Shown here: positions 4,817 through 26,753 of the stretch, in pieces | Layout: each line of letters opens with the position of its first letter | How positions within the stretch are numbered: the first letter of the stretch is position 1 | IMG/VR virus record: IMGVR_UViG_3300027702_000004 | Coordinates: 1-30,156 of that record | Direction: 5' to 3' (one strand) | DNA length: 30,156 bases | Source: a virus | Taxonomy: Duplodnaviria > Caudoviricetes | The notes under the pieces: generated by a model | The model's database searches: none | What the model was told of the DNA's origin: nothing | The model's input: the letters and a program-made list of their open reading frames with translations, nothing else | Translations under genes and position numbers: made by a program

Positions 4817-4824
4817 TATTTATA
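4817..4824 (-). promoter_or_regulatory. T4-type late promoter TATAAATA for the fibre genes
   Basis: Exact gp55 consensus about 30 nt upstream of the GTG at 4788, overlapping the cpeT stop codon. Confidence 0.75.
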
Positions 4825-5224
4825 CAGTTTTTTTGAAGAGAAAGAATCCTTCGCTACCTTCCCAATATCCTTTGTCCCAAGTGTGGTATTCTTTCTCATA
4901 TAATCGTGCTTTACTCTCTAATGGAGTGTCCTTCCAAGTACAGTCTGGTTCAGATTCTCCCTCAAAATATTTTTCTCTCCATCTGAAACACATATCACAT
5001 GCAGGATTATGAACTATTATCAATTCTGGTGACACATATTCTATTTCTACAGTCTGTTCTCTGTATGGTTTGTCCATGTAACTATATCGAGAAGATGTAT
5101 GATACTTATAGTCATCTAACTTCTCATGCTTCACTATTATATGTGCCCACTTTGTAGGATTGGATGCTGCCTGTGTCCAATTATCAAACTCACCCTCAAA
5201 CCATTCACAAAATTGATCTATCAT
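4820..5224 (-). CDS. cpeT: CpcT/CpeT-type phycobiliprotein lyase
   Basis: F.GEFDNWTQA..NP..WAHI, PYR, CDM.F, and TWDKGY motifs of the compact phage T-type lyase. Confidence 0.85.
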   Translation of the reverse strand: MIDQFCEWFEGEFDNWTQAASNPTKWAHIIVKHEKLDDYKYHTSSRYSYMDKPYREQTVEIEYVSPELIIVHNPACDMCFRWREKYFEGESEPDCTWKDTPLESKARLYEKEYHTWDKGYWEGSEGFFLFKKTV

Positions 5225-5718
5225 TTTTCAAAGTAACTTATATTTAATACCATTCTACGATCCACATTTGTAGCAGGTACACCTCTATGTTTGATGTTGG
5301 TGTCAAATATAACAGCAGTATTTGTTTGACTCATCACCTTCTCACCTGTTTCAAACTCAGTGTAACCATCATTTTCATTTAAGTATAACACACAAGTCTT
5401 ACTTGGTGTGGATATCTGCCAATCAGTATGCCATTCTTGCTCTGGTGCATTTCTACACGTAGCATTTAATTTGACTCTTAGTATTGCAATCACATCTAAC
5501 TTATTTGTTGCTGCCATAAGACATCTATTAAGTGTAGGATTCATTGCACTAGAAAACTGGTGATCAAAATACAGTAAATTTACATACTGCTCTGGTTCCC
5601 CCTGTGATTGTGTCCAGAACCATGGAAAGTTTGGACTATTAAACTGACTGTATAGTTCGTTAAACGTATAGAACTCAAGAAAGTTCGGTATTATCTTTAG
5701 ATTCTCTGATGTCATCAT
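5221..5718 (-). CDS. 2OG-Fe(II) oxygenase
   Basis: HTD ... HRG ... R.VLNI facial triad and 2OG-binding Arg; [12 protein letters not shown] motif. Confidence 0.85.
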
Positions 5719-6169
5719 GTAGTCTTTCCATTGCTTCTTGTGTATCCTTACTGGAGATATCTTTATTGATGTACTGACCTGGTGGTTTTGACATCATAGG
5801 ACTCTCAGGATGTGGAACTGGAGTTTGTTTCAGTGTAGCAGCAGAGATCTTTTTACTCTTGCCTTTGTTTGCTTTGCATTTCTTGATCGTTGCACAGGCA
5901 TCACCAACAGTAACTATGTTTCCTGCTTCTTCATCTGGTATTTCAATGCCAAAACATTCTTCTAAGAACATGACAAGTTCTACCATGTCCAGACTATCAG
6001 CGTCTAGATCAATAAATTTACTGTCCCATTCAATTTTATCTGCTTCAACTCTATCTCCTAGAGTTTCTACAATGGCAAGACGTGCAATTTGCAGCATCAT
6101 AGGTTTAGTCACCTTCTTGGACTCTTTTAATATGTCCTTGATCTGACTATATGTGTGGTTATAAGACAT
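5675..6169 (-). CDS. acpP: Acyl carrier protein with N- and C-terminal extensions
   Basis: [35 protein letters not shown] is the canonical ACP core with the phosphopantetheine-attachment Ser. Confidence 0.9.
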
Positions 6170-10311: not shown

Positions 10312-11561
10312 TATGATTCCTCACCATCTGAGTCTGTATATAATGTGATTTTAGATGACATTTTATCTTCACTAGATTTGAATGTTCTTTCAACTCTACC
10401 GATAACATATTTACCAGAGGTTGCAAAGTCTTGCTCTCGATCACTCGTACCTTTATATACATCTAACTGTACTACCTCACCTATCTCTAGTGAGTAATCT
10501 GCAACAAGCTCTACAACTACTTTTTTACCATAAAATAATTTTTCCCTTAAACTGGATTGTGAAAGTTGCTTTGTAAATCCCTGTGTATATGTGCCTTCGG
10601 TAAACAAAGCAGAGTCAGATAATTTGGACATAATTCTAGTATATGTTACGTTGGTATCAAATCCCTTGTAAAACTCTGGTACTCTCCTTGAGTTCATTAC
10701 ACTAACGTCTTGATAATATTTATTGATGCTAAAAGGATGTTGCTCAAATTTCATGTCTTTTATATCTAATGTCATCACATTACTAGAGTATGAACCTAAG
10801 TTCAATCCTTTCAATAAATCAACTGACGTTTCAATAGTTAGTTTATCTAAAGCAATGATACCTGTATCTTCTTCATCTTCTAACTCTCCACCCTCATGTC
10901 CTACAACCATTCTCACTACTGGTTCTTTACTGGCAAATGAATCGTATGAAACAAAATTATATCCTGATCTTGTCTCATAGAAAGCATATCCTGCAGTTGC
11001 ATTCTTACCACTACCTTTTGCAGCTGGTATTGCCTTGGTAGCTAACCATCTTATTGCAGTAAATGGATTCCAGTACGGTGATACGAATGAGAAATTATTG
11101 ACACATGGTTCAAAGTTTAATAACTTAGATTCATCAACACCAATCAAGTCTATCATTATTTCTTTTCTCACTACCTCATGTATTTTTTTACCTAAACCTT
11201 TACCAAATCTACGTGATATTTTGTTAGCAGCGTTGTTTAAAAAATCAACCCTACACATCATCAGTACTGCAGATGATTTACCACCTATATTTCTTCTATC
11301 TTGTATATCGTATATAACAAAGTCTCCTCCAATTTCAGTTGCACCTTCACTGTCTCCAATACGAATAAACACGTTCTCCATACCTGTTAGTTCAGATATA
11401 AAACCAGTCTCAGTATCTGTAACCTGTACTTCCATAAGCATAGTAGCAGACATGATATCCTCAGTGTATTTTACATACAACACTTGATTAACTCCAATGG
11501 GAGGATAGTCCGCAATGAAGAATTGGTAAAGATTAAAATTTGACTGAGTATTAACTGACAT
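10311..11561 (-). CDS. Putative baseplate hub protein (gp27-like)
   Basis: 416 aa directly upstream of gp5. PYWNPF.AI.WL, Y.FYET..GYNF.S and SGKYVI motifs. Confidence 0.65.
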   Translation of the reverse strand: MSVNTQSNFNLYQFFIADYPPIGVNQVLYVKYTEDIMSATMLMEVQVTDTETGFISELTGMENVFIRIGDSEGATEIGGDFVIYDIQDRRNIGGKSSAVLMMCRVDFLNNAANKISRRFGKGLGKKIHEVVRKEIMIDLIGVDESKLLNFEPCVNNFSFVSPYWNPFTAIRWLATKAIPAAKGSGKNATAGYAFYETRSGYNFVSYDSFASKEPVVRMVVGHEGGELEDEEDTGIIALDKLTIETSVDLLKGLNLGSYSSNVMTLDIKDMKFEQHPFSINKYYQDVSVMNSRRVPEFYKGFDTNVTYTRIMSKLSDSALFTEGTYTQGFTKQLSQSSLREKLFYGKKVVVELVADYSLEIGEVVQLDVYKGTSDREQDFATSGKYVIGRVERTFKSSEDKMSSKITLYTDSDGEES

Positions 11562-12895
11562 TAGAATTGAGAAGTCCTGTTATAGAGATCGAGGTATCCA
11601 GATTTTTTGATCTTTGGTTGAGCAAGTTCGCCACCCTCTTGTTGCATAGGTGGTGGACTTGGTGCACCTGCAGCGACAGCAGCACCAGTTCCTGCAGCGA
11701 CATCAATTTGTTTCTGTGTCTTGGCGTCAGCACTCTCTCTATTCTCTTGTATAGTTTTATCAGTCAGTTCAGTTAGGTTAGTTGTCTGTTCAGTTTTTGG
11801 TGCAAATATATTTTTGATACCACCGAATGCTTTCATACCAAGTTTCAAACCCATACCCATGGGTGTCATAGCAAATGCTTTCTTAGCTATACCACCTAGT
11901 CCATCTTTACCCATCTTACCAGCTAATCCTTTTGCACCCTTGAGTAAACCTTTGCCCGCATTGAATGCCATACCCATAGGTGTTAGACCAAACAACTTAG
12001 ATGCCATTGATCTAGTTTTCTTAATAGGTTGCATAGCTCTGCCTGAGCCATCACCCATGCCTATACCATCAGCAGTTCCTGTATATGGTGCACGTCTTCC
12101 AAATGTAGGATCTCCCGATGCACTTGGTAACAAATTCTGTTGTGGTGCTGATGGTAGTTGTGGTTGATCTCCACCACCTCCTGAGTCTCCACCACCCATT
12201 TTACCCCTGACAAAATTAATTGCCTTGGCAAGAAGACCACCAATAACACTTCCTCCCTTCTTATCATCTTTCTTATCGTTATCTTCTTCATCGTTAGCAA
12301 CTTCAGCACTAGCAGCACCTAACTTGAATGAATTAGATATCTTAGATATATTTCTATTCAATATCTTAGATGCTTCCTTACTTGGTGCAGGAATCTTCTC
12401 TAATAAATCTGTCATTGCAACAGCAGCAGATTTAGCAGGGAGTGCTAAGGCATCCATAAATGCCTTCTTCATCTTAGGATCTATTTCAAGATTATCTTCT
12501 AAATCTTTCTTGACCTTTTCTTTGACATCTTTCTCACCTATTCCTGCATCTTCTAACTTATCTACCTTTGGTATGTCTCCTGCTTCTTTTGGAGGTGATA
12601 CAAATCCTCTCGCTTTATCTCTATTTTCTTTGAATTGTCTTATCCTTTCTTTCTTATCATATATTGTATTACCTTCAGCATCTTTACCATATGCAGCTAC
12701 AGGGTCTGGTACGAGATTTGCAGCTGGTAACGCCTTTGGTGCTACTACTGGTTTGGGTGTTACATCAGTTGCAGATACATCAATGGTCTGTTTAGACGCA
12801 GGAAGATCCATTGCCTTTGTAAGGGCACTAGGATTAGCGATGAACTTGGAAAGTCCAACACCCTGTTTCGACATAGCTGGAGGTAATGCTTTCAT
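11561..12895 (-). CDS. Tape-measure-like / tail-associated protein
   Basis: 444 aa, K/G/A-rich amphipathic segments with a TPMGM repeat; position upstream of the hub gene. Confidence 0.55.
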   Translation of the reverse strand: MKALPPAMSKQGVGLSKFIANPSALTKAMDLPASKQTIDVSATDVTPKPVVAPKALPAANLVPDPVAAYGKDAEGNTIYDKKERIRQFKENRDKARGFVSPPKEAGDIPKVDKLEDAGIGEKDVKEKVKKDLEDNLEIDPKMKKAFMDALALPAKSAAVAMTDLLEKIPAPSKEASKILNRNISKISNSFKLGAASAEVANDEEDNDKKDDKKGGSVIGGLLAKAINFVRGKMGGGDSGGGGDQPQLPSAPQQNLLPSASGDPTFGRRAPYTGTADGIGMGDGSGRAMQPIKKTRSMASKLFGLTPMGMAFNAGKGLLKGAKGLAGKMGKDGLGGIAKKAFAMTPMGMGLKLGMKAFGGIKNIFAPKTEQTTNLTELTDKTIQENRESADAKTQKQIDVAAGTGAAVAAGAPSPPPMQQEGGELAQPKIKKSGYLDLYNRTSQF

Positions 12896-12896
12896 G

Positions 12897-14729
12897 TTAC
12901 TTGTACTTCAGAACGTAGTTGGAAGTTTTATCCATAGGACCTATCTGCAACTCTATTGCTTCGTCTATCTCATGTTGATCCATCCATTTATATACTATAA
13001 CTTCTTTAGGTGGCATATTAACAGGAACTACTCTTGGTGCAACAACCACATTTCCTGATGAATCTTTTGATCCTTGTGTTACTGGTTCTTCATTTAAAGT
13101 CTCTTTTGATCCAGATCCAGATGGTGCTGATATTGCACTACCTGTTCCAGATGCAGTCTTAACAGCACCTGATGATTTTGTTTCTGATGTAACAGGATCA
13201 ATATTTGGGATCCATTTATTTTTACCAGGTTGCAACCACTTATCATTTTTCTCATTGTTTTCATAATCAAAATGTACTGGATCTCCTTCACCTTGCCATT
13301 CAAACCCAAACTTCTTACCTTTCTCTCTCATCCATTCGTTTGCTTTTGAGTAGAAGTCAATATCAATTGCCCAACCTTGTCCATGTGGTGACTGTCCTAC
13401 AGGTGCAGGATTTATGGCGTTCTCATCGCCCGCTTCAGCTGCATTTATCAATGCTTGTTGCTGTTCTGGACTTCTATATGAAGATGACACACTCATAGGC
13501 AAGTTTATACCATCTTTTGCTGCACGATTTACTGCCTTCTTCCATGCCTTCATAGTCGGTGGATTCAAGATGATCGGTCTCCCATACATATCCCTACTAG
13601 GATCTGGAGCTGGTGCTGCTCCAACTTGGTCTTCTGCTTTCTTTTGACCTGGCAATACGCCCATGTCTTTAGCAGCAAGTGTTGCATCAAGTCCTATGGA
13701 TATAGCAGTTCCTGCACCAGGTATCATAGATGCTGCACCAGACATAGCTTCAAGAGCAGCACCCTTGAAGTCGCCCGCCATCAGTCGTTGTCCTGCAAAT
13801 AACAATCCTGCACCAAGACCTACAAATGGTATCTTCTTAAGTAACCCTTTACCTAATGCTTTTGCACCTACTTTTGCTACTGCCTTACCACCTAGTTTAG
13901 TAGCGATCTTCTTAGATCCTTTCTTTAACAGTGCCATTGATGCTTTCTTTGCACCCTTCACCAACTTAGTACCTGATGCTGCTACTTTTCTTATACCTTT
14001 TCCTGCCTTTCCACCATATTTTTTTAATAACTTAAGACCTTTACTACCAGTCTTTTTAAGGTTCTTTAGCATCCTCATAGGGTTACCCATGAATGATCTG
14101 GTTGATTTCTCTGGTGTCTGTTCTGTAGTTTTAGTTACTGGTGCACCAGTTGCAGTTTGTTTTTTGCCACCCCACCATACTAATGGTGCTTTCAATCCAA
14201 TAGTTGCTTGTGGTTTTGGTGTCTCTGCTATTCCAAATATACCTTTTAATCTATTTGCTTCTGCTATTACACTAGCTTTAGCAGGAGATGGAGGTAGTGT
14301 TTTTAAGAAACCTAATGATGAACTTATTATTAATGATGCACCTTGTTTGTATATCTGTTCTACTGACTCACCATAATCTTTGACTGGTTGTACAATCTCT
14401 GGTTCTTTTTCACCAACCTTTGCAATAGTCTCACGTTTAACTATACCACCTTTCTCTAGTGCAACTTCTGGTTTCTTTTCGTATGGTAAGTTTCTCTGTT
14501 GTGCTACTTCTTTTATTGCTTCTAGTACTACTTCTTCATATTTGTCTTCGTTCTCTGGTTTCTCTATAGGTGTTGTCGTTCCATATGATTTATCTACAGC
14601 CTCTACAGGTATTGGTGCTATAGCGGGAACTAATTTTGTATCGTCACTAGATTCAATTGCACCAGCTATCCCAACAGCAAGGTTCTTTGCTGCCTTTTTG
14701 AAAAAACTAGTAATTACGGAAGTGTCCAT
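12897..14729 (-). CDS. Tape-measure-like protein with peptidase M15 (VanY-like) domain
   Basis: SSYRS.EQQ, SPHGQGWAID (SxHxxGxAxD) and DPVHF zinc-peptidase motifs; KKIPFVG..AG and IPG.GT..S.G.D motifs of T4-like tail proteins. Confidence 0.75.
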   Translation of the reverse strand: MDTSVITSFFKKAAKNLAVGIAGAIESSDDTKLVPAIAPIPVEAVDKSYGTTTPIEKPENEDKYEEVVLEAIKEVAQQRNLPYEKKPEVALEKGGIVKRETIAKVGEKEPEIVQPVKDYGESVEQIYKQGASLIISSSLGFLKTLPPSPAKASVIAEANRLKGIFGIAETPKPQATIGLKAPLVWWGGKKQTATGAPVTKTTEQTPEKSTRSFMGNPMRMLKNLKKTGSKGLKLLKKYGGKAGKGIRKVAASGTKLVKGAKKASMALLKKGSKKIATKLGGKAVAKVGAKALGKGLLKKIPFVGLGAGLLFAGQRLMAGDFKGAALEAMSGAASMIPGAGTAISIGLDATLAAKDMGVLPGQKKAEDQVGAAPAPDPSRDMYGRPIILNPPTMKAWKKAVNRAAKDGINLPMSVSSSYRSPEQQQALINAAEAGDENAINPAPVGQSPHGQGWAIDIDFYSKANEWMREKGKKFGFEWQGEGDPVHFDYENNEKNDKWLQPGKNKWIPNIDPVTSETKSSGAVKTASGTGSAISAPSGSGSKETLNEEPVTQGSKDSSGNVVVAPRVVPVNMPPKEVIVYKWMDQHEIDEAIELQIGPMDKTSNYVLKYK

Positions 14730-14890
14730 TAGCGTCGGTTTTCTTCAGCGATGCGATCTCTCTCCTTCTGGAGATGAGTTGCTAACATGTTCACATATAC
14801 TTCCCGTTCCCACGGGATCATATTTTCTATATCTGTCAAGCTATATTTATGGTGTTGAACGAGAGAAAAATTAGTTTGGTAGAAGACCAT
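14729..14890 (-). CDS. gp51: gp51-like baseplate hub assembly protein (53 aa; possibly made as a gp26 frameshift fusion)
   Basis: Translated by hand: MVFYQTNFSLVQHHKYSLTDIENMIPWEREVYVNML. TAATG overlap with the next gene. Confidence 0.85.
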   Translation of the reverse strand: MVFYQTNFSLVQHHKYSLTDIENMIPWEREVYVNMLATHLQKERDRIAEENRR

Positions 14891-14893
14891 GAT

Positions 14894-14923
14894 GCCCTCG
14901 TGGAAGAGGGCTATGCGAAAAAA
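14894..14923 (-). promoter_or_regulatory. Candidate -1 programmed ribosomal frameshift signal
   Basis: Slippery heptamer T TTT TTC (14923-14917), 5-nt spacer, then hairpin GCCCTC-TTCCAC-GAGGGC (14911-14894). Confidence 0.7.
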
Positions 14924-15609
14924 TCAGATAATCCTTCCAGTACTACCTCATTTGCAACTTTAGTCTTAGGATTTTTGACCTTCAATACATGCTTAAGAGT
15001 TGGCATGGTCTCAAAAAATGCTTGTATCTTATCAAACTGTGCATTGGTTAATCCTTCTACCCACTTCTTTGACTCCTCAACAGAATCTGCAGTGTAATCA
15101 TCTTCACCCACATAAACTCTCTTGATACATTTAGCGACTAACTCATATGCATCTGGTTCTTCACCTATGAAGTTGACCTTAGTAAAGTAATCTAGATCAG
15201 GATACTTCATCTCGACAGTAAGATCATCATCTATTTTAATTACGTTAGTATGTCCTTTGGGGAAATTGACTTTGACATCATCTACCATAAATTTTACATC
15301 CACAGTAGTCTCTCCATCATCAGCACACGTAACTTTCATCTCAATCTCCTCACTGATTGATCTAGCACGTATCTGTAAAAATAAGTACTCGATATCAAAC
15401 AGTGCCATGTCCTCTACTTTGATTTTTGTATGCAGACAGTTCTGGATAGTCTTAGTTATAGCGTCTAATATTTGTTCTTGGTCATCGTTCTCCAATGCCA
15501 ATATTAATAACTTTTGTTCCTTGACTAGGAATGGTCTATACTTTACTCTCTTCTTTGTAGAAGGGACTGTCAATGTATAGATAGGCGTTGCAATCTCAGG
15601 TAATGCCAT
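14911..15609 (-). CDS. gp26: gp26-like baseplate hub subunit
   Basis: MALP.I.TP.Y.L, YRPFLVKEQK, FDIEYLFLQIRARS and C-terminal LEGLSDFF. Confidence 0.9.
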   Translation of the reverse strand: MALPEIATPIYTLTVPSTKKRVKYRPFLVKEQKLLILALENDDQEQILDAITKTIQNCLHTKIKVEDMALFDIEYLFLQIRARSISEEIEMKVTCADDGETTVDVKFMVDDVKVNFPKGHTNVIKIDDDLTVEMKYPDLDYFTKVNFIGEEPDAYELVAKCIKRVYVGEDDYTADSVEESKKWVEGLTNAQFDKIQAFFETMPTLKHVLKVKNPKTKVANEVVLEGLSDFFA

Positions 15610-15640: not shown

Positions 15641-16321
15641 TCAACTGAAGGTCATTAAATGACTATACTCGTAGTAAAACCCAACAGTTGCCTTAACAAG
15701 TTGTGCAGGACCTGCAGAGAATGGTATTGATGCTACAGTGTATGGATATGCTTTTACAAGTCTAGCATTCCATGGGTTTTTGTAGTCTCCATTATCTCCC
15801 CCTAAGTCTTTGGGTTCTCCTTGAGGTGAATTATATTTTTCTAACTTACTGATAAACATATCACATGCATAGTCCTCATAGTAATTAGATGCGAATGCTC
15901 TCTTATATGGTTGATCGTCATAGAAGAACTCAGGATTACCACCAACTCCATTTGAGGTGAAGTCTTGCCATGCTCTAAAAAATCTTAATGGTAATGATGT
16001 ACCATCCATAAAGAAACTAACATCTAATTCATTATATACCTTTGCTGTTGCCATCTTTTGTGTGATACCTTTATGCACTGACTTAACATCAAATGCTGAG
16101 TATGTCACACCTGGCAACTGTATCTCATTGCATAGTAACTGTAAGTTTATTGTATCACCATTATCTGTTAGTTTTAAAAACTCATCAAACACATTATCTT
16201 TAAAAAATTTCTCTAACCTTGGTGTTGGTTGAAAAGAAAACTGGTATAAATTAGACGCAGAGATACCACCAGACTTGCCGATAGCCTGCATGAAATTCTG
16301 TAGTCCTCTTGCGGATGCCAT
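15641..16321 (-). CDS. Tail tube-like protein (gp19/gp54 family)
   Basis: GG...SNLY, LLC..IQLPG, FF.AWQ, L..AYP..V and V.F.YEY motifs. Confidence 0.7.
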   Translation of the reverse strand: MASARGLQNFMQAIGKSGGISASNLYQFSFQPTPRLEKFFKDNVFDEFLKLTDNGDTINLQLLCNEIQLPGVTYSAFDVKSVHKGITQKMATAKVYNELDVSFFMDGTSLPLRFFRAWQDFTSNGVGGNPEFFYDDQPYKRAFASNYYEDYACDMFISKLEKYNSPQGEPKDLGGDNGDYKNPWNARLVKAYPYTVASIPFSAGPAQLVKATVGFYYEYSHLMTFS

Positions 16322-16354
16322 AAATAACCGTATGGTTTGTTATATGTATTTATG
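16319..16354. promoter_or_regulatory. Pair of divergent late-promoter-like boxes (CATAAATA on each strand)
   Basis: CATAAATA on + at 16319-16326 and on - at 16347-16354. Each contains the start codon of the gene on the opposite strand. Confidence 0.6.
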
Positions 16355-17183: not shown

Positions 17184-18514
17184 TGTCACAACAAAACACA
17201 GTAATTGAATATCCCACTGGTCTCTCCTCGATTCCTTATGCTTCTTTCTTGCAGATAGAGAAGTATAGTTATGATGAAGCACAGAAAACAGTTGCTAAAC
17301 AATTTAACGATGCTTTAGGATCTTATAATAGAAGTGTTATATCAGATGTAGTAAGAACTGGTGCAAATACATTAGCAAAGGCATATGGATCTGGAGCTCC
17401 AACAGACAGTTTTACTGACTATGCGTTAAATGAATATAAAACAGAGAGTAGATTAATAAGTACAAGAGAAACTTCTAGAGGGACAAAGAAAAAATATTCT
17501 GGTAGTAGAACAATTAATATTACAGATCCAAACGTAGATCCAAACACAAGAGTTAAATTAAAAAACGGTGAAGTAACAACAGTAGGTCAACTCTTACAAA
17601 AGAAAAAAGAAGCAGTAGATAAGAAAAATAAAGGTTTGATGTCATCTAGATGCATGTTACCACTACCTAATGAGTTTCAATATAAGTATGGTGCAGATTG
17701 GAGTAACGAATTTAAACTAGGAACACTAGCACTTGCAGCAGATGAAGCAGGAAAGTTTGCAGCAGTTGCTGCAACTGGTGGAGTTATCGGTGGCGGTTTG
17801 CAGTTTGCTGCAGGAAAACTAAGTGCAGGAAGTAACGTTGCTAAAGTTGGTGGAGTCGATCTTACTAAGATTATTCAAGGATCAGCACAAGGTGTTAAGA
17901 CTGCTGTTGATCCTATGAAAGTAAATAGTCCGTTGAATCCAAAAAACATTGCAGGATTAGCAGGACTAGCACCTAACGAAAACTCTATACAGTTCTTTGA
18001 AAGAATGCAAGGTAGAGAGTTTGGTTTCAGATTTGAATTAGCAGCAAGAAATAAAAAAGAAAGCAATAGAGTCATAGAAATAATAGAGTGGTTTAAACGT
18101 GGCATGCACCCTAACTCAAAATCTGGTAGAGGTAGTGCAGTCATGCTTACATTCCCAGATGTATTTGTATTGACTCCGAAGTTTGTAAAATGTGATGAGG
18201 ACGGAAATGTAATCGGAGATCCAATACAACATCCTATGATGCCTAGAACAAAACTATGTGCATTGACTGGACTGACTATAAACACAACACCATTTGGTCA
18301 ATTACAAACAGTGTTTGATGGTACGATTCCTATTGTCACAATGGAATTAAATTTCAAAGAGACAACAAAACTTACACGTGTGGATATGGAAGGTGCTTCT
18401 TATACAGACAAGAGAAACTCAAAGGTTATTGCAGGAGTAGATGCAACTGCTACATCAGAGGGTGGATTTATTGCAGATCAAGACAAAGCATTTACTGGAG
18501 AGGTATCATTCTAA
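17183..18514 (+). CDS. gp48: gp48-like baseplate tail tube cap
   Basis: R.F.F.F.L.ARN..ES..V..II.WFK..M.P, P.VF, CALT...IN and M.L.F.ET motifs. Confidence 0.8.
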   Translation: MSQQNTVIEYPTGLSSIPYASFLQIEKYSYDEAQKTVAKQFNDALGSYNRSVISDVVRTGANTLAKAYGSGAPTDSFTDYALNEYKTESRLISTRETSRGTKKKYSGSRTINITDPNVDPNTRVKLKNGEVTTVGQLLQKKKEAVDKKNKGLMSSRCMLPLPNEFQYKYGADWSNEFKLGTLALAADEAGKFAAVAATGGVIGGGLQFAAGKLSAGSNVAKVGGVDLTKIIQGSAQGVKTAVDPMKVNSPLNPKNIAGLAGLAPNENSIQFFERMQGREFGFRFELAARNKKESNRVIEIIEWFKRGMHPNSKSGRGSAVMLTFPDVFVLTPKFVKCDEDGNVIGDPIQHPMMPRTKLCALTGLTINTTPFGQLQTVFDGTIPIVTMELNFKETTKLTRVDMEGASYTDKRNSKVIAGVDATATSEGGFIADQDKAFTGEVSF

Positions 18515-19128
18515 TGTTAGGGAAATTACCAGACTTACTATACAACTTCTCGTCAAAACCTCTTGACCCAGATTTTCTAGTAGTCAAAAATATATGGAGA
18601 CGTGCTCAAATTCTTACTGAATATAAAGCACAGGTTAGTTTATTTGTAGAAGATCAAGTAGGAGATGGAGAGAGACCAGAAGATGTTGCAGTAAGGTTGT
18701 ATAGCAATCCATTTTATAATTGGACTATACTTGTAATTAATGACATCACTGATTACTATGCACAATGGCCACGATCAGTTACACAACTACAAGATTTTAT
18801 AAATCAAAAATATGATAATGCACAAGCAACTAAACATCATGTAACTACAGAAGTAAAAGATTCCAATAATAACATTATCGTTCCTGCAGGAAAAGTTGTA
18901 GCATCTAACTTTCAAGTAGCATACTACAATGGATCTACTACTGTTACTGCAAATCCAGTAGTATCAATAACTAATGCAATGTACGAAACAGAAATAAATT
19001 CTAGGAAACAAGCAATACAAGTTGTCAAACCAGATTTAATAGAAGATTTTGTAGCAACTTATGGAGAGATATTGAAGAAAGGAAAAATAACCACAACTGC
19101 GGGTGGAACGTCAGATATAAACATGTAA
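18514..19128 (+). CDS. gp53: gp53 baseplate wedge protein
   Basis: DGERPEDVA..LY....Y.W.IL..N.I.D...QWP (LysM-like). Confidence 0.9.
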   Translation: MLGKLPDLLYNFSSKPLDPDFLVVKNIWRRAQILTEYKAQVSLFVEDQVGDGERPEDVAVRLYSNPFYNWTILVINDITDYYAQWPRSVTQLQDFINQKYDNAQATKHHVTTEVKDSNNNIIVPAGKVVASNFQVAYYNGSTTVTANPVVSITNAMYETEINSRKQAIQVVKPDLIEDFVATYGEILKKGKITTTAGGTSDINM

Positions 19129-20316: not shown

Positions 20317-20940
20317 CTATTTATTATAGCAGAATAAAAATGATTTGACAAGCTTTTCTGCTTTTTCCTCTCCAAATATACCTTTTAGATACCCTCCAAC
20401 AGGGTCTAGACGTGTCATGTAAGTATCGAAGTCAGCATATACTGACGTATCTTCTCCATCTGGTTCTACTGCTTCTACCATTCTTCTATATGCATCAAGA
20501 TATTGTGCAAACTCTCCCACGTATTGATCTACCTCATCCATTTTACACTTACGTACAAATATATTCTCTGAGAAATGATTACCTTTCTCAAAAAATCTGT
20601 AGTCTTCTGTTGCTACTGGTAAGTCTGGATGTGAGAACATGTAGTTCTCTGTAGGATGCTGAAAATCAAATACTATGATTACCTTATACTCAGCAAATCC
20701 CATAAGATCCATGCCAAAACAGGGCAGATTACTGCCAGTCTTAGGATAGAGGATGTTGTTGTAAATGCTAGACTTTTCATTGTAAATTTCTACCTCACGT
20801 GCTTTCAAAAAATATTTATGACGATACTCTATTGCTTTTAAACTTGTGTTACGTTTTCCTTCCCACTCCATGCTAGTAGCATCAGGTTCAAGATCAAAAG
20901 TATTGAACAATACCTTCTTATAATTCTGCCAAAGATTCAT
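20317..20940 (-). CDS. pebS: Phycoerythrobilin synthase (ferredoxin-dependent bilin reductase)
   Basis: ILYPKTG..LPCFGMDLM, VIIVFDFQHP, RFFE.GNHFS.NIFVR and DFDTYMT.LDPV motifs. Confidence 0.93.
   Translation of the reverse strand: MNLWQNYKKVLFNTFDLEPDATSMEWEGKRNTSLKAIEYRHKYFLKAREVEIYNEKSSIYNNILYPKTGSNLPCFGMDLMGFAEYKVIIVFDFQHPTENYMFSHPDLPVATEDYRFFEKGNHFSENIFVRKCKMDEVDQYVGEFAQYLDAYRRMVEAVEPDGEDTSVYADFDTYMTRLDPVGGYLKGIFGEEKAEKLVKSFLFCYNK
20318..20351 (-). promoter_or_regulatory. Overlapping sigma70-like and late promoters upstream of the RNA
   Basis: TTGTCA-17 nt-TATAAT with an extended -10 TG, plus AATAAATA at 20318-20325. Confidence 0.7.
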
Positions 20941-22936: not shown

Positions 22937-23995
22937 TTAAAATACAGGCATAGTTTTACCCATGTGCTGCATCATATCAAAGATAATATACATCCTATCC
23001 ATGTATCTAGACCTGTAAGGTTCTTGAAAATATGGCATGTATGATTTTTGTTGTACATGTGTATAATCAAATTGGTATCTCAATGCTAACCTATCTGTAG
23101 TATCTCCTAGACGTCTATGTTGTATAATACTGTTATCAAATATCAATAGGTCATCATCATTCTCCCACCAATAATCATAAGTATATTGTTCTTTTACTAA
23201 TTCTTTTCTAATCTCTCCCAATACTTTTTCTGCTTCTACATCAGACATACCTTTGATACCTGTCACAGTATTGAAACTAAAATGCAATCCTTTAATTCCT
23301 GCAGGACTTTCTATAACAAGTGGTATCTCAGTATTTGGATCAGGACACATGTTCTTGTACATAAGATTATCCTGTGGTTCATTTAAACCAGGATTTATTC
23401 TGCCAGGCACAAAGTTATGTACAAGTATCATCTCATCTAATTCGCTACGAAAGCTATCACTTACACTATAATAATAGTTTGTAGTCTCCATAAAACCTGT
23501 GGCACTTCGAGTCATGCCTTCTACACCCAACAGTGCAACACCTGGCGTAAATGCTATGTCACCACTCTCATTACTATGCCATAACAACTCACCCTCAGCG
23601 AACATACCAATGCGATGTCCGTTGATTCTCTTTCCGCTTATTCTTAGTGTATTACCATATGCATCATCAGCACCCACTCTCCAAAATTCTCTTACAATTT
23701 CTTTAGTTTCTCTAGGTACATCTGGACTCATCATGAGTTGTTCTATGTTACCTTTAAACTGTGGAAACCTAGCAAAAAGAGTGGAAGCAAAGTTCTGTCT
23801 GTCTTCACCCCACTTCTTTATGACTTGATAAAATGATTTCTTTTTTAGTCCTGATTTTCTGATAATCATGACTAATTTTTCTAGGTGTAACTTACCTAAT
23901 TCTAACCACTCATCTCTAGTCGTATTTTTCCAATCTAGATCATCAACAAATACACCAAACTCTCCCATACTTGGGATGTTAGTTATGCGGGTCAT
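22937..23995 (-). CDS. TauD/TfdA-family dioxygenase
   Basis: G..V..LD, L.WHS, T.F and W..DD.LIFDN....HRR....R motifs. Confidence 0.8.
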   Translation of the reverse strand: MTRITNIPSMGEFGVFVDDLDWKNTTRDEWLELGKLHLEKLVMIIRKSGLKKKSFYQVIKKWGEDRQNFASTLFARFPQFKGNIEQLMMSPDVPRETKEIVREFWRVGADDAYGNTLRISGKRINGHRIGMFAEGELLWHSNESGDIAFTPGVALLGVEGMTRSATGFMETTNYYYSVSDSFRSELDEMILVHNFVPGRINPGLNEPQDNLMYKNMCPDPNTEIPLVIESPAGIKGLHFSFNTVTGIKGMSDVEAEKVLGEIRKELVKEQYTYDYWWENDDDLLIFDNSIIQHRRLGDTTDRLALRYQFDYTHVQQKSYMPYFQEPYRSRYMDRMYIIFDMMQHMGKTMPVF

Positions 23996-25362: not shown

Positions 25363-26017
25363 TGTCTCTCCTATAGGCGTCAATATACTCTTTAAGTTTT
25401 CGAGCGTATTTGTTTGTGTCATAAATTTCAAAGATTTGCGGTTCGCCTGTCTCACAAGCGATAATGGTTACGAGTTTCTTTGGTATTAAACCAGTTAGCT
25501 CTTGAAACATTATAGCATATGCTGTCTCCTGTGCAAAGTAGTCGTGTATCCATTCTTCACGTTTGTACTTTGTTGAGGTTTTGAAATCTATTATTGATAG
25601 TTCTCCTTTGTATTCTCCAATACAATCTACTCTTCCTGCCATTTTCAAGAGACTAGAAGACATTGATTCTTCTAGGGCATGTATATTATCAATACTATCT
25701 AGGTAGGGTTTAATCTGGTAGAATAACCCCATGGATAGTGGATCGTCACTATATTTACTAATTGATTTATTTTCTAGATATAATTCACATAACTTGTGGC
25801 ATTTATTACCTCTGGTAGATGCACGTTTAGATATCTTATTTGCTTCTTCTTCACCAACTTTTTGTCTCCACTCAAATATTGCTTGCTTCTTAGAATGACC
25901 TATGACAGTTGTAACAGAAGGGTAGAGAGAATCGCCAACACGATATCTCCTACCCTGTAATGTAGTTGTTGCTTTTAACTTTGGAAAGTTATGTATGTTT
26001 AAATGGTTAAATGCCAA
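25349..26017 (-). CDS. PD-(D/E)XK exonuclease
   Basis: YPSVTTV, RG...H, AGRVDC, IIDFKTS and Q..AY motifs. Confidence 0.85.
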   Translation of the reverse strand: MAFNHLNIHNFPKLKATTTLQGRRYRVGDSLYPSVTTVIGHSKKQAIFEWRQKVGEEEANKISKRASTRGNKCHKLCELYLENKSISKYSDDPLSMGLFYQIKPYLDSIDNIHALEESMSSSLLKMAGRVDCIGEYKGELSIIDFKTSTKYKREEWIHDYFAQETAYAIMFQELTGLIPKKLVTIIACETGEPQIFEIYDTNKYARKLKEYIDAYRRDNGNW

Positions 26018-26753
26018 GATTCAATTTACTAATCAAATAAGATTTGACTAGACCTGATCTCACGATGTCGTCAATGCCAAACTCAATACTTTCAAACTCA
26101 TCCATGTCATCAATAATTTTCTTGAAGTCCATGATACCAGTTTTTTCATGTGCCTTAATAAGATCACTTTGTGCAGCGTCTCCTGCAAAGATAATTTTAC
26201 TATTCACACCTAGTCTTGTTATTATACTATCTAATTCATGAAAATTCAAGTTCTCAGATTCATCAACCAAAACTATACTATTATCTATGGTAGTTCCACG
26301 AATGAAACTTGTAGACCAGAATGATATAGTATCCTGTGCTTTTAGATTGCCATATAGCATTTCAAATGATGCATCATCAGGCATCTCAAACATATAGCGT
26401 ACCATGTTTTTATATGGTATCTGATATAAGTTTGCCTTGTCTTCATGATCACCTGGCAAGAAACCAATCTCTCTTGTCGGTACTAATGATCTTACAATGT
26501 AAAGTTTATTATATGGTGTCTGCTCATTCAATATCTCTTTAAGTGCAAGATACAATGTAATAAACGATTTACCAGTTCCTGCAGCACCAAACAAGAATAG
26601 ATGTTTATTCCTCTCCCACGCTTCAAAGACTTTCTCTTGTGCGGGTGTGAGAGGTTTAATATCTACTAGATGATCTGATCCAATTGGTTTCTTTCTCATT
26701 TTTCTCGATGATAACCCAACCATGGTAGGTTGTTTCTTACTTTTGACTGGCAT
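26007..26753 (-). CDS. phoH: PhoH-family ATPase
   Basis: GAAGTGKS Walker A; IGFLPG, RG.T, DE.EN and GD..QSDL motifs. Confidence 0.95.
   Translation of the reverse strand: MPVKSKKQPTMVGLSSRKMRKKPIGSDHLVDIKPLTPAQEKVFEAWERNKHLFLFGAAGTGKSFITLYLALKEILNEQTPYNKLYIVRSLVPTREIGFLPGDHEDKANLYQIPYKNMVRYMFEMPDDASFEMLYGNLKAQDTISFWSTSFIRGTTIDNSIVLVDESENLNFHELDSIITRLGVNSKIIFAGDAAQSDLIKAHEKTGIMDFKKIIDDMDEFESIEFGIDDIVRSGLVKSYLISKLNLGI

Follow-up and report, generated by a model that had tools for sequence, protein, structure and literature searches.

The locus analysed here raises the question of whether a short open reading frame (ORF) called gp51 in T4-like cyanophages encodes a protein of its own or the end of a longer protein that begins in gene 26. 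The window, i.e. the whole stretch of DNA that was analysed, is a virus record of 30,156 bases from a T4-like cyanophage. Between its gp26 and that of Prochlorococcus phage P-HM2 the identity is 100%, and the 12.7 kb surrounding this gene show 99.4% identity to GU075905. The order on the minus strand is a tail-tube-family gene, gp26, the 53-codon 'gp51' ORF, a 610-aa gene, a 444-aa gene, a tail protein gene and gp5. An earlier reading of the sequence alone (the sequence-only reading) had proposed that a -1 ribosomal frameshift fuses gp26 to gp51, and that the two form a pair of tail assembly chaperones of the G/GT type of phage lambda. Our analysis supports such a pair by the heptamer, its register, the coding-type evolution of the bridge between the two ORFs, the homology to T4 gp51 and a predicted chaperone fold. 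Thus, gp26 and the 'gp51' ORF are likely one gene that is read in two ways by a -1 slip and gives a G/GT-like chaperone pair; we put the probability of this reading at about 0.86.

Gene 26 (14911..15609, minus strand) encodes the short, TAC-N-like form of 232 aa (PF12322, E 2.5e-64) and ends with GAT TTT TTC GCA TAG. As had been claimed, T TTT TTC (14917..14923, minus strand) is a slippery heptamer of the X XXY YYZ type; it lies one codon ahead of the gp26 stop TAG (14911..14913, minus strand), which is bypassed in the -1 frame. A GC-rich 6-bp hairpin, GCCCTC-TTCCAC-GAGGGC (14894..14911, minus strand; -12 kcal/mol), is indeed present 5 nt past the heptamer and is a candidate stimulator. A -1 slip would read FF-RIALFHEGI-MVFYQTNF and further, in frame with gp51 and with no stop until 14729, again in agreement with the sequence-only reading. 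The resulting TAC-C-like extension (14729..14917, minus strand; 62 aa and a stop; phrog_634, E 8.6e-24) contains the 53-codon ORF (14729-14890, minus strand), the ATG of which is at 14890. The predicted fusion has 231 + 62 = 293 aa; T4 gp51, which has the same tail in frame, supports the view of the short gp51 as the C-terminus of a roughly 290-aa fusion. Across 16 genes of the window, T TTT TT was found in phase at 4 of 5,982 codon positions. A sequencing error at the junction was considered and rejected, because the junction is the same in P-HM2 and stays in phase in all relatives.

Outside this locus, the window carries ordinary auxiliary cyanophage genes: CpeT-like (4820-5224), acyl-carrier-like (5675-6169), ferredoxin oxidoreductase (20317-20940; phycoerythrobilin in P-HM2), dioxygenase (22937-23995) and PhoH (26007-26753). 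The gp53 gene (18514-19128) is a single 204-aa ORF in the window and is split into two CDS in P-HM2; gaps open at three points when the two sequences are aligned, possibly due to a sequencing difference.

The conservation of the junction was studied in several sets of relatives. Peptide patterns outside the junction gave 600 IMG/VR matches, of which the best 80, with identity from 91 to 38%, made up the IMG/VR set. One locus that is cut before the stop (L046) was left out, giving 79 scorable loci, and three that end inside the extension (L015, L047, L064) were kept for the heptamer count; stops in the -1 frame were counted in 77 loci. Another 29 loci (L102-L130) were collected, of which two (L129, L130) were cut before the stop and dropped; the junction was found by script in 25 and by hand in 2. 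L100 and L101 were dropped as identical to their queries. Scans for relatives of RSP15 and phi-ST2 gp26 gave one and two loci, two of them 100% query matches, and L102 alone was counted. Twelve named records were examined among 60 listed of 634 matching: P-HM2 and 11 distant phages, with identity down to 22% and Sinorhizobium, Aeromonas, Vibrio, Cronobacter, Ralstonia, Rhizobium, Stenotrophomonas, Synechococcus and Methylophilales as hosts. A protein homolog search with gp26 returned solely near-identical gp26 and was set aside.

The alignment of junctions that the sequence-only reading had suggested as a check bore out both the heptamer and the -1 register. Six T's in the X XXY YY phase, with one codon left before the stop, were found in 79/79 scorable IMG/VR loci, the heptamer in the same phase and followed by an open -1 frame in 27/27 further loci, and the heptamer with an open -1 frame of 54-68 codons in 11/11 distant named phages; the sampled relatives share kinship, and these counts are not independent trials. 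The heptamer is TTTTTTC in 56 of the IMG/VR loci and TTTTTTA in 23, the second residue changing from F to L while the six T's stay. As a background, the remaining long ORFs of these loci contain 335 [DNSA]-F-[FL] tripeptides, of which 58 are written T TTT TT. The distance of the stop from the heptamer is not fixed, because one locus (L120:2700-2735) retains the heptamer though its 0-frame stop is eight codons further on.

The reading frame past the slip site is conserved as well. Stops between the slip site and the gp51 ATG, named beforehand as an observation that would speak against the fusion, were not found: within 150 nt past the gp26 stop, the -1 frame is interrupted in 0/77 loci and each other frame in 77/77. 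The amino acids upstream of the gp51 ATG, which were also to be compared, evolve as coding sequence, with variation concentrated in the third positions of the -1 frame (codon-position entropy 0.52/0.37/1.37 from the stop to the ATG versus 0.44/0.33/1.14 past the ATG). A Pfam scan of 62 extension peptides gave no convincing family; Stealth_CR2, which was hit by 18 of the 62 peptides (best E 0.004), was judged a chance match.

The link to T4 comes from profile comparisons. In the phrog_150 profile (282 positions), gp26 matches positions 5-232 and the small ORF matches 244-280, leaving a gap that fits the nine bridge residues, and in the same profile T4 gp26 covers positions 14-235 and T4 gp51 13-280. 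A profile of the 62 extension peptides matched residues 200-244 of T4 gp51 (probability 89%, E 2.2e-6), and this alignment starts at the slip site and includes residues upstream of ATG 14890. The gp26 profile matched T4 gp26 with a probability of 97.8% and, weakly, the N-terminal part of T4 gp51 (probability 47%, E 2e-4). GenBank record MN709128 names both gp26 and gp51 'tape measure protein assembly chaperone'. XXXYYYZ was found in the last 11 codons of gene 26 in none of seven two-gene phages, i.e. T4 and 6 of 40 listed phages with full-length gp51; T4 and RB69 write the FF of gene 26 as TTC TTT. Phages that depend on a single gene for both forms have the slip signal, and those with two genes lack it. 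In Cronobacter phage GAP161 (L098:610-3188), the gp54 tube gene is directly followed by full-length gene 51 and gene 26, arranged in tandem on the same strand, possibly a remnant of the duplication by which the frameshift was replaced.

The structure of gp26 was modelled from a 68-sequence alignment (pLDDT 85). In a Foldseek-free search of 48,161 chains, 3FGX ranked first (Z 8.1, rmsd 4.0, 85 residues aligned), followed by 3KLU (Z 7.5, rmsd 3.9, 85 aligned) and 2OB9 (Z 7.4, rmsd 3.9, 84 aligned), after which Z drops to 5.3 and 4.4. Since Z values of 7-8 can reflect common arrangements, the weight rests on the top three being one family: all are tail assembly chaperones according to PMC9603447. 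The top Foldseek row was also the HK97 chaperone 2OB9, with E 0.86 at best, and the 50 matches listed in a BFVD search included only gp26-family and unnamed proteins. The model thus predicts a tail-assembly-chaperone fold for gp26 residues ~1-94, to which the match is limited.

The sequence-only reading had placed gp26 and gp51 between a tail-tube-like gene and tape-measure-like genes; the order was as stated, and the labels fared less well. The upstream gene (15641..16321, minus strand) does belong to a tail-tube family (PF23849, E 3.5e-15; phrog_45, E 1.9e-36), in a gp54-like position, annotated in two relatives as gp54 or tube initiator and not as the major tube protein. A search for gp19 in the 30-kb record found none, but the controls of this search also gave nothing. 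Downstream, the tape-measure label is weakly supported. The 610-aa gene (12897..14729, minus strand), rich in Ala, Gly and Lys, carries an M15/VanY peptidase domain (PF02557, E 3.2e-8), and its match to a tape-measure PHROG is confined to residues 388-494, in this domain; it may tentatively be regarded as a candidate tape-measure client. The 444-aa gene (11561..12895, minus strand), of the same Ala/Gly/Lys-rich composition and with no named family (phrog_26201, unknown function), is a second candidate. Matches to tape-measure families were found for the downstream genes in 3 of 6 relatives tested, two of these matches being weak. In RSP15 and Bakedbeans no tape-measure-like gene follows, and the tube/chaperone/tape-measure order is broken. 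The 610- and 444-aa genes (11561-14729) are one base apart, and the match of the 444-aa protein to its PHROG is limited to positions 135-579 of the latter; at the position of this pair, S-PM2 carries a single gene of more than 1,100 aa. The tape measure may be split or variable in this group.

Two further observations concern possible promoters. The motif ATAAATA, which we take to resemble a T4-type late promoter, lies inside the extension (14844-14850, minus strand), about 120 nt before the 610-aa gene, and is found in 59/79 relatives. The HKY residues over it are written CAT AAA TAY in 58 of these 59; in gp26 bodies, CAT accounts for 204 of 257 His codons and AAA for 988 of 1651 Lys codons. 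It is possibly an internal promoter for the downstream genes. The region that separates the tube-family gene from gp4 contains two ATAAATA motifs that face apart, one at 16320 (plus) and the other at 16353 (minus), likely a divergent late-promoter pair. A Sigma-70 promoter scan was uninformative (12 sites versus 7.4 expected).

The best surviving alternative accepts the frameshift but regards its products as structural or catalytic parts of the baseplate hub, which would not act on the tape measure in the manner of G/GT. Genetic support for gp26 as part of the hub is noted in the review PMC3004832, about 140 gp26 residues lie outside the chaperone-like domain, and the tape-measure client is weakly supported among the window genes. 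The chaperone folds at the top of the structure search, which depends on a predicted model, and the short-plus-long architecture speak against it. The same review describes T4 gp26 and gp51 as hub assembly chaperones and gp29 as both hub component and tape measure; as the tape measure of T4 is thereby part of the hub, chaperoning the one can amount to chaperoning the other. We consider purely structural or catalytic hub parts improbable, and prefer the chaperone pair.

The role of the hairpin requires separate consideration. None of 200 shuffles folded as stably as 29-nt and 57-nt pieces, and 4 of 200 did for a 56-nt piece that includes the T-run. Compared with synonymous recodings of the same peptide, the hairpin of the window gave p 0.01, and the recodings were beaten in 43/45 close and 16/34 distant loci. 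Strong stems in the distant loci are mostly in a register shifted by two bases; many other distant loci and most named phages have no stem. Covariation, which had been proposed as a check, did not exceed that of shuffles: the score was 0.137 in the register of the window, with 277 of 500 shuffles as high, and 0.172 in the register shifted by two, with 54 of 500. The hairpin is probably a clade-specific aid and not a required part. Its 3' arm contains an SD-like GAGG, 5 nt before ATG 14890, and for this reason the hairpin may also gate re-initiation.

It could be argued from the latter feature that the 53-aa ORF is made as a separate protein by coupled re-initiation, the gp26 ribosome melting the hairpin and exposing GAGG and ATG 14890, with no fusion. 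An ATG stands at the position used in the window in 38/79 relatives, and another four have GTG or TTG only, but 37/79 have no ATG, GTG or TTG in -1 codons 3-14 and still keep the frame and the peptide. The stop of gene 26 overlaps an ATG in 5/11 distant named phages and 1/25 further loci, as coupling would have it; yet the bridge codons show coding-type evolution, the heptamer is invariant here and absent from 7/7 two-gene phages, and T4 gp51 is a covalent fusion. Coupling in place of the fusion is therefore very improbable on our estimate; it could operate alongside slippage. Individual overlaps of the gp26 stop with a -1-frame ATG (TGATG or TAATG) were seen in L083, L085, L087, L089, L091 and L102; they sit one or two codons past the heptamer, a coupling-like signature added to the slip site.

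The least probable explanation is that the same fusion arises by RNA polymerase slippage adding one U in the T-run. In its favour, the run is the only universal element, with no RNA structure conserved across all clades. Against it, the run has a length of exactly six T's in 79/79 IMG/VR loci and in 8/11 named phages, without exception in the X XXY YY phase; tandem tRNA slippage needs at least six, whereas polymerase slippage has a threshold of about 8 or more. RNA contigs from runs X1-X4 of one study span the junction with no letter added or lost, but contigs drop rare variants and are therefore no test of polymerase slippage, nor do they indicate how strongly the region is transcribed.

Under the preferred reading, that of ribosomal slippage, most ribosomes would stop at TAG and release the 232-aa chaperone. 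We infer both the slippage itself and its rate: a minority of ribosomes likely slip back by one base on U UUU UUC, both Phe tRNAs re-pairing in tandem from UUU UUC to UUU UUU, which would give the 293-aa form with a gp51-type tail. A pause is probably added by the nearby stop and, in the clade of the window, by the hairpin. The presumed binding partners are taken from lambda: by analogy, the tape measure protein would be covered by the abundant short form and connected to the tube protein by a small number of long copies, so that the pair would act as chaperones of the tape measure and initiate the assembly of the tube. In T4 and its closer relatives, the same two forms are products of the separate genes 26 and 51. 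A speculative extension, which we regard as doubtful, is that T4-like phages form a series of devices setting the short:long ratio, i.e. bare U6, U6 with a hairpin that originated in two or more registers, U6 combined with a stop/ATG overlap, which would also free the C-terminal domain, and two genes, and that the hairpin of the cyanophage clade has a double duty, pushing the slip and masking the start of a third, free 53-aa product.

The sequence-only reading regarded this arrangement as not known to be described for T4-like cyanophages; novelty for the T4-like group as a whole is not supported. Vladimirov, Gautam and Davidson (Virology 2022) reportedly found that several T4-like groups retain the frameshift and that T4 relies on genes 26 and 51. 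Papers that cite this work attribute to it the poly-T signals for a -1 shift in 'TAC-N genes of T4-like phages' (PMC12846349) and the T4-like phages carrying separate short and fused long genes (PMC10885494), so that the arrangement appears to have been predicted in 2022. Both the poly-T signal and the two-gene alternative are reproduced here at the level of sequence. Specialists are unlikely to be surprised, because of the 2022 paper, and the present case is a well-supported example together with an annotation gap, not a discovery. Our literature search, with subscription journals mostly outside its scope, found no direct description of a gp26/gp51 frameshift in T4-like cyanophages, and no protein, reporter or ribosome-profiling evidence in a T4-like phage. 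None of the 12 one-gene annotated records examined joins the two ORFs; the P-HM2 record gives gp51 only 30 codons, and the LPCS28 record omits it. The annotation might be corrected, since what is listed as a short 'gp51' in T4-like cyanophages probably forms the tail of a longer protein.

Among known systems, lambda gpG/gpGT resembles the pair proposed here in the -1 slip near the end of the first ORF, the short and long products and the location in a tail-assembly locus; as given in PMC5009743, the gpG:gpGT ratio is 30:1, G binds the tape measure and T binds the tube protein. Lambda differs in its non-contractile tail and in a lysine-codon slip site, versus U UUU UUC here, and gp26 carries ~140 residues beyond the chaperone-like domain. 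HK97 gp13 (2OB9), YqbN (3KLU) and Rbstp2171 (3FGX) are the best three structural matches to gp26 residues ~1-94, but with 2-14% identity at an rmsd of about 4 A, and with 96-119 residues versus 232. T4 gp26 (208 aa) and gp51 (249 aa) belong to the same phrog_150 family, and the tail of gp51 is similar to the -1 extension; the difference is that T4 uses two genes, with no slippery site and on opposite strands. T4 has been cited as the exception to the tail-chaperone frameshift (PMC5009743), and the result for gp26 and gp51 fits it into the general tail-chaperone scheme.
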